Made by a program: the position numbers and the translations under genes
Source of the DNA: an uncultured Aquimarina sp.
Lineage (GTDB): Bacteria > Bacteroidota > Bacteroidia > Flavobacteriales > Flavobacteriaceae
Length of the DNA: 64,000 bases
Assembly: GCA_947498765.1 (NCBI GenBank)
Contig: CANMLG010000007.1
Location: 19,547-83,546, forward strand
Direction: 5' to 3'
The notes under the pieces: generated by a model
What the model was told of the DNA's origin: nothing
Database searches by the model: none
Seen by the model: only the letters and a program-made list of their open reading frames with translations
Shown: piece after piece, positions 41,331 to 48,727 of the stretch
How positions within the stretch are numbered: position 1 is the first letter of the stretch
Layout of the letters: each line of letters begins with the position of its first letter

Positions 41331-41361
41331 TGTTTATGGATGAGCTTGAATAAAAGGATAG

Positions 41362-43227
41362 TTATTTTTTTAGTGCTTTTATAATTCTTTCTTCATTAAT
41401 TACAATATCCCTGAATAATACATGTGGCAGATTAGAGTATTTAGATATTTTAAATTCATCAAAAATTTTAGTTAAAGAAGACGCTTTTAAAAGAGATAAA
41501 TTCATTTCCATATCCATTTCACAGTCAGTTATAAAATCATCACTAAATTCAGGAGCAACTAATAAGGTTTTTATAATTCTTAAATTATTAGCTTCAACAA
41601 GTTTTTGGTACGATTTTAATTGTCTTGAAACAGAACTGAATTTATTGTAACCCTTTTCTTTGCTAGTTTTACATTCAATAATTATAACTTCATCATTACT
41701 TAAGTTAATAAGTATATCTATTTGATCTTTTAATGTATTAACTGTCTTTTTTAATTTTTCATCAATATTAAAACCTAGCTTTTTGAAGATAATTTTAGTA
41801 AGTTCTTCAAATTTTAAACCGAGTTCACTTTCTTTAATAATTATGCCATTATCTTTTAATTGATTTAAATCTCTGTAAGCAATATTTTCATAATTTTCTA
41901 GAAAAAGGTTTTCAGCATCTTTATAATTTTCTAAAATATTTAAAATATCATCTCCACGTTGCTTGATCCCATTATTCTTTATGAATTTAGACAAGTCATC
42001 TTTATCTATTAAATCTAAAATATCTCTTGGCTTTATATTGTAATTCAACAAGAAATTTGCATTTAATATAAATTCATCTTGAAGTTCAAATTGATCTTTT
42101 AGTTGTTTATTTAATTTTGGTAATGACTCGTTTAATTCGGTCAACATTTTTTCAAATCCATCTAATGAGATACCAACTTTTTCATCTTTTTCAATTATTT
42201 CAAAATAATTGATTAGACTATTTATTTTGTCATTTAAAGTGCTGCCCTTTAGTGTCGATATATTTAGTCCCTTTTCACATAAATCACTAAGTTGCTTTTT
42301 TTTATCAGTTAATGTTGTTCCATCTTTGTACATATCGTTTAATAATATTCCTCTTAATGAAACTCCTTCTTTAATAATTTCTTCAATTTTTTCAGAATTA
42401 TTTAATTTCCGATCAACATTATGAATTTTAGCAATTTGATTAATTATTGGAGGTCTCATAATTTTTAAAGTTCTTCTTAGGAATTTATCAGCAATTTCTT
42501 TTTCTCTTAGTTTCCTTAATAGGCGAACTATTTCGTCGGCTAAATAAATTGTGTTTTCTTTTTTTGAGAAGAAGAGGACTCCAATATTTTTTAGACTATT
42601 TATTACGTCTTGAATATCCATTTTTTTAATGGGAAGAATGGAGTAGTTAATTAGTTTTATTTCTTCTTGAGATAAACCAAGTTCTTTTGATAATGTTAAT
42701 AATATAGAAAGTTCATCCGATGTTATTTTAGCTTCTCGGTTATTTTCTAAATCATTTTGATAGGCTGTTTTTAAACAAGAAAGGTAAATTTTATAATCTC
42801 TTTTCCTGAATTCAGATAAATCCGATTTATCATTTTCTATATCAGATTTTAGATTTTTTAATCTGGATTTCAAGTGTTTTAATTCGTTGTCGTATAGCCT
42901 AGAAAACCAATCTTGTTTCATTATACAATTGCCATCACGTATAATTATATCAATTAAAATGTCTAATTGAGATGAAGTGTCCTGGAATTCAGCCTTTAAA
43001 TAATCAAAGCATTCTCTCTGTATTAAATTAAATATTTTAACAATATTTTGACTGTCAACAGATTTAAGTCCTTTATCTGCTGAACTTAAAATTTTATCAA
43101 TTTCTTTACTGTTTTTTGGTGATCTAGAAATAATATTATCAATTACTTTTATGAATGAGTTCTTTTCTAATGAGCCTAGTTTATCTAATATTTTTTCTAA
43201 TTTCATATTTATTGTTTTGATATTCAA
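41362..43227 (-). CDS. Large helical protein with C-terminal Mrr-like PD-(D/E)XK nuclease domain (likely start ATG 43206)
   Basis: GLKFEELTKIIFKKLGF...QIDILI...IIIECKT...RQLKSY...LLVAPEFS; the N-terminal ~470 aa are unrecognised. Confidence 0.7.
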   Translation of the reverse strand: MNIKTINMKLEKILDKLGSLEKNSFIKVIDNIISRSPKNSKEIDKILSSADKGLKSVDSQNIVKIFNLIQRECFDYLKAEFQDTSSQLDILIDIIIRDGNCIMKQDWFSRLYDNELKHLKSRLKNLKSDIENDKSDLSEFRKRDYKIYLSCLKTAYQNDLENNREAKITSDELSILLTLSKELGLSQEEIKLINYSILPIKKMDIQDVINSLKNIGVLFFSKKENTIYLADEIVRLLRKLREKEIADKFLRRTLKIMRPPIINQIAKIHNVDRKLNNSEKIEEIIKEGVSLRGILLNDMYKDGTTLTDKKKQLSDLCEKGLNISTLKGSTLNDKINSLINYFEIIEKDEKVGISLDGFEKMLTELNESLPKLNKQLKDQFELQDEFILNANFLLNYNIKPRDILDLIDKDDLSKFIKNNGIKQRGDDILNILENYKDAENLFLENYENIAYRDLNQLKDNGIIIKESELGLKFEELTKIIFKKLGFNIDEKLKKTVNTLKDQIDILINLSNDEVIIIECKTSKEKGYNKFSSVSRQLKSYQKLVEANNLRIIKTLLVAPEFSDDFITDCEMDMEMNLSLLKASSLTKIFDEFKISKYSNLPHVLFRDIVINEERIIKALKK

Positions 43228-43283
43228 ATACTCTTAATAGACATAAATATATCATAATTATATATAAATCAATTGCTTGTGTG

Positions 43284-45368
43284 TTAATTTAGGCTTTGTA
43301 ACCCCATTATCTTCCTATCAAAAAGAGGGCGTTTCATAAAATACCATTTAAGTAATAAACCAAATTCGGTAAATTGAAATCCTGCAGCTGTGGCAGAAGC
43401 AATATTACTGTGTTTGATATAGGTGTTTGCCGAAAAACGATCTGTGAATTGATATCCTAATTTCCCTTCCAAGCGAAAAGTTTCTGAGGCGGGATCATTT
43501 TCTATAAACTGAAAACCTGCAGCAGCATTGGCGCCATAGGAGAGCTTACCAGTTTGTTTGCTAATAAGATCTGTAAAAACTTCTACAACATGGAACTTTT
43601 TTGGACTAAAATAAATATTAGGCACTTGATTTTTAAAGGCAATAGTTTGATAATTAATACCTGCTTTTACAATAGGTCTATGGAATAGTTTATAGTAAAG
43701 CGAAGTGAATAAAAGGTTACGTATGTTATTATCTGTTTGATTGGTAAACATGTATTGTGTATACCAACCTAAATTAAAATTGGTGTTTAAATTGTAATTC
43801 AAAAAATAGTTGTTCATTACAATTTCTCTGTCGATAAGGTCGGCATTAAAGTTTTGTAAGGCGCGTTGATATCCAGCTTCCAAATTTTGCAGTTTAAAAA
43901 GCTTAGTTTTAAGTTTTATTTCTCCAGTCCATTGTGTATACTCATTAGTAATGGCATTGGATTTACTCGCACCAATTTTAGAAGCTAAAGTGAACATTCC
44001 ATTAAATTTATATGCAAAACCAGTAGTGAGTTCATTTGTAGCTGCTTTTACATTAGAGGTGGTGTTTTCGGTAGTTCGATGTATATAGCTAGCACTAATG
44101 GTCGTTTTAGTGGATATTGGAATTTTTGTAAGCAATTCGGCACTTATACTTTCATTATTTCCATTATCAAAAGTAAAGGCGGTTTTCTGTTGTACCCATG
44201 GAGTATGTGATTGTTTTAAGGATTTTAGTAATTTTTCGGCATCAGGTTGTTGTTTATAGTAATCCAATGTTTTAAAAATATATTCGTAACTCTTTAAGTC
44301 ATCCCCGGTAGCTCTGTAGGCATTAGCAATGCCTAAATTTCCATCAAATGATTTGGGTTGCTTTTTTAGTATGGTGGTATAGTTTTGTAAACTTTTTTTA
44401 AAGTTACTTGTGTACATGCCGTGAGTGGCTTGCAAGCTTTGTACTCGGGTAGTATTGGGATATTGTTTTTCTAGCTTCTTAATTTCGGCAGCAGCCAAAT
44501 TAAATTTTCTATTCCATAATAAAGCTTGTATATAGCGCTCTTTTGTAGATAAGTATATCTTAGTGTTTGATTGGTGATTTTCAACTTTAGCTACAGCTTC
44601 AGTACTAATTTTTAAAGCTTTTTTTTCTTTAAAAGCCTTATGCGCTACTAAAGCCAAACCATTAAGCGAAACAATGCTATCAATGGGGGAAGTGGCTAAT
44701 GAAGTATATGTCTTTTCTGCATTTAAAAGATCATTTGTAATTAAGTAAATAGTCGCTTGATTAAGTTTGGTGTCTTTATCATTAGGGAAATCTTTTAAGT
44801 TTAAGGTTAATATGTCTAAGGCTTTCTCATATTCTTTGTTTTGCGATAATTGATTCGCATAGCCTAAACGCATATATTTTCGAGAAATTAGGGCGTTTTT
44901 ATTCCCATTTTGAAGTTGTAAAGCTGTGTTTACCTGTGTGAGTGCCTGTTTATATTTTTTTAAGTTAGATAGCGTATTGGCATAGCCCAATGTGGCAGGA
45001 AAACTATTTGGGTCTTCATTAATTAAAGTTTCATAAAAGCCTTCCGCTTTAGCGTATTGTTTATCCCATAATAAAGATTCGGCATAATTCAATTTAATTT
45101 CAAAATCCAAAGGATAGTTTTGTTTTAAATCAGTAAAAATAATCACTGCTTTTTTAGAGTTCCCCGATAAACCTATAGCACGACCATAGCAAAGTTGGGC
45201 CGTTTTATTATTTGGATAGGCTTTAAGAATGTCTTCAAAAAAAACAACGGCCTTTTCATATTTACCAGTTTCTAAATAGGTAAAACCCTTTTGCATTTGT
45301 TGAGCAAACAAAAAGGAAAGATTCAGAAACAACATAATCAGAAATAGTATTTTTTTTAGCATAGGCAA
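43284..45368 (-). CDS. TPR-repeat protein with C-terminal outer-membrane beta-barrel (PgaA/BcsC/PelB-like export porin); likely start ATG 45362
   Basis: Signal peptide, ~8 TPR-like repeats, then amphipathic strands including IYFSPK and ending FGLLLKWYF. Confidence 0.7.
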   Translation of the reverse strand: MPMLKKILFLIMLFLNLSFLFAQQMQKGFTYLETGKYEKAVVFFEDILKAYPNNKTAQLCYGRAIGLSGNSKKAVIIFTDLKQNYPLDFEIKLNYAESLLWDKQYAKAEGFYETLINEDPNSFPATLGYANTLSNLKKYKQALTQVNTALQLQNGNKNALISRKYMRLGYANQLSQNKEYEKALDILTLNLKDFPNDKDTKLNQATIYLITNDLLNAEKTYTSLATSPIDSIVSLNGLALVAHKAFKEKKALKISTEAVAKVENHQSNTKIYLSTKERYIQALLWNRKFNLAAAEIKKLEKQYPNTTRVQSLQATHGMYTSNFKKSLQNYTTILKKQPKSFDGNLGIANAYRATGDDLKSYEYIFKTLDYYKQQPDAEKLLKSLKQSHTPWVQQKTAFTFDNGNNESISAELLTKIPISTKTTISASYIHRTTENTTSNVKAATNELTTGFAYKFNGMFTLASKIGASKSNAITNEYTQWTGEIKLKTKLFKLQNLEAGYQRALQNFNADLIDREIVMNNYFLNYNLNTNFNLGWYTQYMFTNQTDNNIRNLLFTSLYYKLFHRPIVKAGINYQTIAFKNQVPNIYFSPKKFHVVEVFTDLISKQTGKLSYGANAAAGFQFIENDPASETFRLEGKLGYQFTDRFSANTYIKHSNIASATAAGFQFTEFGLLLKWYFMKRPLFDRKIMGLQSLN

Positions 45369-48062: not shown

Positions 48063-48485
48063 TTAAATAATGGGATTGCTAGCAAGATACTCTTTAGCAG
48101 TTAATACGGGTAGTTTGGAATTTTTGAAATCCTTTTTATTTCTGGTAATAATAATATCAACTTGGTTTTCAATAGCTGAGTAATATTGCAATCCATCTTC
48201 AAAATCAGGAAAGTTATCATCATTTAAAGCAAGTTCAGTAACTTTATCATCTAAACTTAAAGTTTCAACAAGTACTTTAAATTTCCTTAATATAGTTCTG
48301 GATTCTTTTTTTGATTTTAACTGAGTTAAAATGTAATTAGTATTAGCAAAACTCAGCGAAGAAACTGTTAGCCTTAATAAATTTTTATCGGCCATAGAAA
48401 ATAAAGCAGCAGCTTCAGGATAAAATGCTTCTCTTTTGGCCAATAGATCAATAATAATATTAGTGTCAATTAATAATCGAATCAT
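48063..48485 (-). CDS. PIN-domain (VapC-like) toxin
   Basis: LLIDTNIIID and DFEDGLQYYSA...IITRNKKDF acidic PIN residues. Confidence 0.9.
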   Translation of the reverse strand: MIRLLIDTNIIIDLLAKREAFYPEAAALFSMADKNLLRLTVSSLSFANTNYILTQLKSKKESRTILRKFKVLVETLSLDDKVTELALNDDNFPDFEDGLQYYSAIENQVDIIITRNKKDFKNSKLPVLTAKEYLASNPII

Positions 48486-48727
48486 TTGTATTTCTCTATT
48501 AAAAAATTACCATAATTATCAGTTATATTTTCGGCATTGTTTAAATCGATTACACCGCTTAAACTTTCGACTAGTGGAGTAATTTCTTGCGAATGCTCTT
48601 TTCTTTTATTTAGTGAAGCCAAATAGGATTCAATAAGTTTTGATAGACTTGTTTTATTGGATTTTGCATATTTTTTAGCTTGTTCAATAACCGATTTATC
48701 AAGACTTAAGGTAAGTTTAGTATCCAT
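48482..48727 (-). CDS. Ribbon-helix-helix antitoxin (DUF6364-like)
   Basis: MDTKLTLSLDKSVIEQAKKYAK...SLSKLIESYL; overlaps the toxin start by 4 nt. Confidence 0.85.
   Translation of the reverse strand: MDTKLTLSLDKSVIEQAKKYAKSNKTSLSKLIESYLASLNKRKEHSQEITPLVESLSGVIDLNNAENITDNYGNFLIEKYK

Follow-up and report, generated by a model that had tools for sequence, protein, structure and literature searches.

We analysed a stretch of 64,000 nucleotides (the window) from an uncultured Aquimarina sp. (GenBank assembly GCA_947498765.1, contig CANMLG010000007.1). On its reverse strand, at 41362..43206 with the stop codon included, lies a gene for a protein of 614 amino acids in which, according to structure models, a standard restriction-type nuclease domain is joined to a large helical module. 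We regard the protein as a candidate single-protein defence nuclease that would act, in a restriction-like manner, against phages or other mobile DNA; this role is plausible, if not quite probable. It is the best reading because of the defence-like contexts in which the gene is found, the literature on integron cassettes and an invariant catalytic site.

The open reading frame (ORF) is intact. In its longest form it covers 41362..43227 and starts with a TTG at 43227. The true start is the ATG at 43206, since all homologues, which are 614-615 amino acids long, begin with MKLEKIL at the matching position.

The nuclease domain comprises residues 456-614 (41365..41841, reverse strand, as for all parts of the gene given below). 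To study its conservation we used an alignment of 25 full-length family members with 28-87% identity. The catalytic core lies at 41665..41718 and consists of D497 in the motif DILINL (41701-41718) and of E511-x-K513 in IECKT (41665-41679); these three residues are invariant in the 25 sequences. The first helix of the domain contains the motif FEELTK (residues 466-471, 41794..41811), whose conserved E467 is the motif I glutamate of PD-(D/E)XK nucleases. The helix SRQLKSY (41608..41628) follows the ExK strand and carries the invariant Q529 and Y533 of a QxxxY-type motif, and VAPEFSDDF is a further conserved motif of the domain. In the AlphaFold2 (AF2) model the core is formed by a helix at 459-476, strands at 498-503 and 506-512, a helix at 523-539 and a strand at 543-551. 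E467, D497, E511 and K513 are thus conserved on a predicted alpha-beta-beta-beta-alpha-beta core, and the C-terminal PD-(D/E)XK motif set that the initial annotation had read from the sequence holds across the family.

Similarity to described nuclease families is weak. The Pfam model Mrr_cat (PF04471) matches residues 471-525 of the long ORF with an E-value of 0.0025 and 18.3 bits, below the cut-off of 21 bits. Seven of the 25 family members match Mrr_cat at E <= 0.1, the best at 2.3e-6, and for these seven it is the best Pfam match. A few members match Card1_endonuc, HSDR_N, NucS_C or Hjc, which are likewise PD-(D/E)XK families. In PADLOC there is a weak match to the PD-(D/E)XK model DruK (E 2e-4), and single family members weakly match CARF-PDDEXK or PDC models. 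When the whole chain is compared with the Protein Data Bank (PDB) using Foldseek, FokI (2FOK) comes first (E 1.7e-3, probability 0.99, template modelling (TM) score 0.23), followed by RPB5, EndoMS/NucS, MspJI, McrC and Cap4, all via the nuclease domain. Searching the PDB by sequence, with the protein and with a family profile, gave no match.

The protein shares with Mrr a C-terminal PD-(D/E)XK domain with the D...ExK arrangement, a single polypeptide and the absence of a cognate methylase. However, the Mrr_N winged helix is absent in all 25 members, the N-terminal 455 residues are unrelated to Mrr, and genomes that carry the nuclease also contain 5-methylcytosine (m5C) and N6-methyladenine (m6A) methylases. 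The earlier label "Mrr-like" is therefore appropriate at the level of the superfamily, but with Mrr_cat below its cut-off and Mrr_N missing it does not extend to the Mrr family itself.

The N-terminal module (residues 1-455, 41842..43206) is predicted to be all-helical. The AF2 model of the whole chain, built with the family alignment, has about 30 helices followed by the nuclease core, with a predicted local distance difference test score (pLDDT) of 89.7 and a predicted TM score (pTM) of 0.81. A separate model of residues 1-455 reaches a pLDDT of 88.3 and a pTM of 0.86. Inside the module the model shows one small unit of helix and beta-hairpin, resembling a winged helix, at about residues 163-233. 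Conserved residues are D91-G92, C144, N151, E165, E182, E225, K241, R245, K273, G321 and D395; among these G92, C144, E165, E225, K241, G321 and D395 are invariant in the 25-member alignment. The motif RDGN (residues 90-93, 42928..42939) contains the invariant G92 and the nearly invariant D91.

No match for the N-terminal 455 residues was found in Pfam, NCBIfam or PADLOC, and Pfam is also empty for this part across the 25 members. With Foldseek, the model of residues 1-455 gave nothing better than E 1.8 in the PDB, and the sole hints are weak, generic fold matches to winged helices of the MarR/MntR type with E > 2. The large N-terminal region was already noted as lacking a recognisable domain in the initial annotation, and the models now indicate that it is a well-folded module of no known family or fold. 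Reading the N-terminus as TerB-like or as SAP/HeH was rejected; neither has support from hidden Markov models (HMMs) or fold searches, and SAP/HeH was a visual impression.

A word-indexed protein search returned over 2,870 relatives. Throughout the best 120, lengths are 614-618 amino acids and identities 74-87%; they come from many genera of Flavobacteriaceae, including Muricauda/Flagellimonas, Spongiivirga, Sediminicola, Winogradskyella, Olleya, Gelidibacter, Aquimarina, Psychroserpens, Nonlabens and Wenyingzhuangia. An exhaustive search of 1.84 billion cluster representatives gave 341 matches, and the full-length ones share one architecture. Full-length homologues with 36% identity are found on Pseudoalteromonas chromids. 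The family is uncharacterised and belongs mainly to Flavobacteriaceae, with distant members in Pseudoalteromonas.

Few Flavobacteriaceae have the gene: it was found in 4 of 25 genomes of its own genus (16%) and in 12 of 200 other genera (6%), and one genome has two copies. Copies from the same genus are 71-81% identical, no closer than those from Muricauda or Spongiivirga (82-83%). Such a patchy spread, together with the high identity between genera, is the pattern of an accessory gene that appears to move horizontally. The identity of 75-87% across genera might suggest a conserved core gene, but this is ruled out by the presence in only 4/25 and 12/200 and by the empty sites described below. 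A phage gene was also considered, as the PHROG family phrog_34709 matches the protein over its full length (E 6.5e-110). It was ruled out: tblastn against 50,697 phage records gave no match, IMG/VR gave no confirmed match and a viral fold library gave matches to the nuclease domain only.

The two closest relatives without the gene (G007 and G010) show what the locus looks like when it is empty. The adjoining protein is 95% and 91% identical in these genomes, and the gene for a protein sorted by the type IX secretion system (T9SS) and a gene for a tetratricopeptide repeat (TPR) protein are directly convergent, 168-295 bp apart. When aligned to the empty sites, the insert begins on the left at about 41340, directly beyond the terminator hairpin of the T9SS gene and 22 nt from the stop of the nuclease gene, and ends on the right at about 43305, within the last codons of the TPR gene. 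The insert of about 1.95 kb is thus the ORF with about 100 nt of upstream DNA, an ORF-only unit inserted into a convergent intergenic spacer. Its 3' flank is about 22 nt (41340..41361, reverse strand), beyond which, from the T9SS-gene terminator on, the sequence again aligns with the empty sites. The 5' flank (43207..43305, reverse strand) is absent from the empty sites; it is likely to contain the promoter region and possibly also a remnant of the junction to an upstream cassette. Through the insertion the TPR gene (43284-45368, reverse strand) has lost its own final few codons and stop, and those at 43284-43305 come from this flank. Since the edge of the insert lies inside these codons, the C-terminus of the TPR protein (…IMGLQSLN) is unlike that of the gene-free relatives.

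The genomic context is different in every carrier genome. Solitary copies in other genomes have only the ORF in common, with neither a conserved non-coding flank nor a terminal repeat, which rules out ends like those of transposons or miniature inverted-repeat transposable elements. Given the patchy distribution, the precise empty sites, the ever-different contexts and the cassettes found in relatives, sequence comparison strongly supports the horizontal acquisition of a single gene, as first proposed.

Relatives of the gene are found in arrays that resemble integrons. We regarded a copy as a cassette when its ORF precedes a folded attC-like site and the inner box of that site, xxxxxxAAC, can pair with the GTTxxxxxx start of the same cassette. 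In Wenyingzhuangia sp. (L040 1-17845, GCA_054111205.1) the genes of the array lie on the same strand, and each spacer contains an attC-like repeat of roughly 190 nt; 17.8 kb hold 19 of these. In 18 of 18 cassettes the variable bases that follow the conserved ...CCGTT at the start are the reverse complement of those before the cassette's own ...AAC end. This is the signature expected of integron-type cassettes that recombine at G|TT. The nuclease gene is cassette 10, with GTTGCCCAC and GTGGGCAAC as its paired variable ends, and when folded, the bottom strand of its site has paired ends (z = -4.2). The array comprises 19 units or more, and its sites, about 190 nt each, are very uniform; some cassettes are duplicated, and two ParE toxin pairs are among the genes. 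No recombinase gene is seen within these 17,845 nt.

In Muricauda sp. SCSIO 64092 a divergently oriented gene for a tyrosine recombinase of the XerA type precedes the cassettes, the second of which is the nuclease gene (GTTAGCCAC / GTGGCTAAC). This recombinase scores 234 bits on NF040815, above the cut-off; with the integron-integrase model it reaches 206 bits, short of the required 265 bits. Spongiivirga has a homologous attC-like site, and a copy from a metagenome has the same cassette ends with one mismatch. Overall, the cassette structure is present in loci L040, L010 and L054 and, with one mismatch, in L012. Relatives of the gene thus circulate between marine Flavobacteriaceae as integron-like gene cassettes.

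The copy in the window does not have this structure. No attC-like site follows its stop codon, where there are only about 22 nt before the terminator of the neighbouring gene, and an HMM of the genome's own attC-like sites has no match in the window or on its contig. By eye, a short part of the 5' flank, ACAAAGCCTA...CACAAGC at about 43275-43299, resembles the end of the Wenyingzhuangia site and the start of a cassette; as a relic of an upstream cassette junction it is suggestive only.

The same genome does contain cassettes elsewhere. On a contig of 7.4 kb (C56) a gene for a 380-residue Xer-like recombinase is followed by at least 5 cassettes with GTTxxxxxx/xxxxxxAAC pairing and attC-like sites some 190 nt long. 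Searched with an HMM built from these, the genome yields 33 sites, spread over 20 contigs. The array was probably broken up in the assembly, because many of the contigs with sites are tiny. One cassette itself contains a second copy of the recombinase gene.

Preprints report that small and compact defence systems are abundant in integron cassettes, fusions with Mrr_cat among them (bioRxiv 10.1101/2024.07.02.601686; 10.1101/2024.07.02.601719). Among these, Epona and Divona from sedentary chromosomal integrons (bioRxiv 10.1101/2024.07.02.601686) are close parallels to the protein studied here: both are single-gene cassettes in which an Mrr-type nuclease is fused to another domain, and relatives of the window gene are also cassettes of an integron-like array. 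However, the partner domain is a holin or DUF4365/crr6 in Epona and Divona, while it is a new helical module here. Further, the platform of the present family is a Xer-like recombinase of Flavobacteriaceae with sites of about 140-190 nt, and the window copy lies outside any array. We regard the protein as a candidate defence protein, a nuclease fusion encoded by a single gene with an N-terminal module that is, according to the models, structurally novel.

A defence role is further favoured by the structural matches of the nuclease domain, which are to DNA endonucleases acting in restriction, repair or defence, and the contexts of the gene bear on it too. Around half of them are regions of defence, toxin-antitoxin or mobile genes. 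In Aquimarina sp. AU58 the nuclease gene directly follows a Septu-like PtuA/PtuB pair, in Spongiivirga it precedes Pepco and a Lit-type Peptidase_U49, and one copy lies inside a ParE-rich cassette array. The Pseudoalteromonas homologues are accompanied by genes for an HNH endonuclease and a methyltransferase, a helicase and NERD proteins, and some copies lie in DNA that is dense in insertion sequences (IS) or integrases.

If the protein is a defence nuclease, the helical module would recognise a feature of invading DNA, or it would restrain the enzyme. The C-terminal domain would then cut the DNA, probably after dimerisation as in enzymes of the FokI and Mrr type. Host DNA would be spared because it lacks the recognised feature, and not through a cognate methylase.

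Several observations weigh against this role. No system model in PADLOC-DB v2 matches the family, where only weak matches at the level of domains are seen. About half of the contexts, counted without a formal enrichment test, are plain housekeeping neighbourhoods: the window itself, a site next to Lgt/SSF genes (G002), one near UvrA (G017), and those in Nonlabens, a metagenome contig and Olleya/Psychroserpens. Neither HMM scans nor fold searches identify a DNA-reading domain in the N-terminal module. A recognition domain like that of FokI was rejected, as the whole-chain match (E 1.7e-3, TM 0.23) is lost when the N-terminal part is searched alone. The claim of a defence system in the initial annotation thus remains plausible from the share of defence, toxin-antitoxin or mobile contexts, but it gains no backing from PADLOC.

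The protein resembles FokI, a Type IIS enzyme, in its layout. Both proteins have a large N-terminal module and a C-terminal PD-(D/E)XK cleavage domain of similar size that is presumably non-specific. However, the module is unlike the three winged-helix subdomains (D1-D3) of FokI, and no partner methyltransferase is encoded within about 7 kb. The term "FokI-like" therefore fits the cleavage domain and the layout, not the recognition domain, because the N-terminal model alone has no FokI match.

A sister clade of the family shows a different arrangement. In two of 13 carrier genomes, at G045:C1:66870-69468 and G061:C112:39686-42282, the nuclease gene is preceded, at a distance of 57-74 bp and on the same strand, by the gene for an Ion_trans channel of the voltage-gated type. 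These nucleases belong to the same family, are full length and have about 57% identity to the protein studied here. No such pairing was found among the examined members of the clade of 71-87% identity, which, the window copy included, are solitary. The genome of the window has its Ion_trans gene on another contig (C15), and the gene upstream of the nuclease is the TPR/outer-membrane gene. Ion_trans matches of the paired channels (~1e-27 to 1e-29) are weaker than those of the other channels in the carriers, which are about 270 residues long (~1e-35 to 1e-38).

A wider proposal is that the proteins form an undescribed family of single-protein immune nucleases, with 455 residues acting as a sensor or DNA reader of a new kind, spread through marine Flavobacteriaceae by the integron-like cassette system, and with a sister clade wired to a voltage-gated cation channel. 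Such wiring would suggest that an ionic signal of infection, or one from the membrane potential, can gate the nuclease. Taken as a whole we consider this proposal tentative and less likely than not.

The channel gene is also relevant for an alternative, in which the protein is an abortive-infection nuclease. Here the N-terminal module would sense a phage protein or a physiological signal and set free a non-specific nuclease against both host and phage DNA. The position of the sister clade directly downstream of a voltage-gated-channel gene fits signal-gated activation. Further, the protein is solitary, with neither an immunity protein nor a methylase as partner, and its large conserved N-terminal domain has no recognisable DNA-binding fold. 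However, the channel gene is absent beside the window copy and beside the examined members of the 71-87% clade, sensor-type domains such as STAND, TPR, CARF or SAVED are absent, and no evidence supports toxicity. Abortive infection is in our view rather unlikely.

Instead of defending the host, the nuclease could be selfish or serve a mobile element, for instance in its own spread or in the maintenance of the array, with no defence benefit. Outside cassette arrays the conserved unit is the ORF alone with unconserved flanks, copies are frequent in DNA rich in IS elements or integrases, and one genome has two of them. However, every locus differs, unlike what is seen for homing endonucleases with one cognate site, and the mobility of the gene is already accounted for by the recombinase of the cassette system. 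This makes a selfish role quite unlikely.

The initial annotation also offered modification-dependent restriction, and a classical Type IV enzyme, cutting DNA that carries m5C or m6A in the manner of Mrr, would agree with the weak Mrr_cat similarity and with the missing methylase partner; in agreement with the first description, no methyltransferase gene lies within about 7 kb on either side of the nuclease gene. Further, small enzymes of Types II and IV reportedly occur often in integron cassettes. However, carriers are not depleted of methylases. A C5 methylase is present in 9/13 carriers and in 98/201 genomes of the family sample, and N6_Mtase in 10/16 carriers, with the D12 class in 3/16, including the genome of the window; the comparison is coarse, as sequence context and hypermodified bases are outside its scope. 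Nor do Pfam, NCBIfam, PADLOC or fold searches detect any modification reader (SRA, DpnI-type winged helix, YTH, GmrS/DUF262 or SBD), and Mrr_N is missing as well. With no reader detected and no depletion of methylases in carriers, broad methylation-dependent restriction is without support, and we judge a classical Type IV enzyme to be improbable. A dependence on hypermodified bases of phages is possible.

The DpnI and HhiV4I family, N6-methyladenine-dependent Type IV enzymes fused to a winged helix, is similar in that a DNA-binding module and a PD-(D/E)XK or other nuclease share one chain without a methylase (PMC11037411). The difference is that the present protein has only a weak, generic unit resembling a winged helix, unlike the DpnI-type reader, and that its carriers have N6 methylases. 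In the genome of the window, a frame of 701 residues (G000:C34:9183-11051, reverse strand) matches both D12-class N6-adenine and C5-cytosine methylases; from its sequence it appears to be a fused double methyltransferase.

Finally, a housekeeping nuclease of DNA repair or recombination, like NucS, Hjc or RecB, is highly improbable: there are weak NucS_C and Hjc matches, EndoMS fold matches and a place near uvrA in one relative, but the gene is found in only 6% of genera and 16% of own-genus genomes, is cleanly absent from the closest relatives and has a different context each time.

If the defence role holds, a widespread family of one-gene immune nucleases would be added, with more than 2,800 homologues of a uniform 614-residue architecture and an N-terminal domain that is confidently folded and without structural relatives. 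The integron-like cassette system of Flavobacteriaceae would gain a concrete cargo that can be interpreted functionally, and the window gene would be the solitary reference form for reading the channel-coupled relatives.

The gene differs from its surroundings in composition. It was described as very AT-rich, and its G+C content is indeed 24.5%, against a mean of 32.6% (standard deviation 2.5), the lowest of the 32 ORFs of at least 250 amino acids in the window. At second and third codon positions the G+C fraction is 0.22 and 0.17, respectively. The low value comes both from a protein rich in K, N, I, L, D and E and from AT-rich third positions. In a scan for sigma-70 promoters the scores did not exceed those of shuffled sequence, for a model that is ill-suited to promoters of Bacteroidota.

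In other genomes a few further neighbours can be observed. In Olleya (L011 11885-12397) and Psychroserpens (L039 9885-10397) a gene for an RNase_T exonuclease of 170 residues lies 40 bp downstream of the nuclease gene in a syntenic region, and it may be a partner of the nuclease in this lineage. On a chromid of Pseudoalteromonas donghaensis (L008 7572-20199) a variable island between porin and LysR genes encodes an S-adenosylmethionine (SAM) methyltransferase, an HNH endonuclease, the 36%-identity nuclease, a metallophosphoesterase, a GTPase-like protein, a DEAD/DEAH helicase of 1050 residues and a NERD protein. In a sister strain only the SAM methyltransferase, the HNH endonuclease and the nuclease homologue of this island are retained.

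In the window, the nuclease gene sits at a convergent junction of a glycan cluster, as first annotated. The convergent neighbour on the forward strand encodes the T9SS-sorted protein, which is 1337 residues long and contains DUF6923, DUF4114 and Por_Secre_tail. Upstream, on the strand of the nuclease gene, lies the TPR/outer-membrane gene of the glycan cluster and then a glycosyltransferase gene. Further along the cluster are a PIN/DUF6364 pair and a GH5 gene. The pair (48063-48727, reverse strand) lies between the glycosyltransferase and GH5 genes and consists of a PIN (PIN_3) toxin gene and a DUF6364 gene that overlap by 4 nt, an arrangement that resembles a toxin-antitoxin system.

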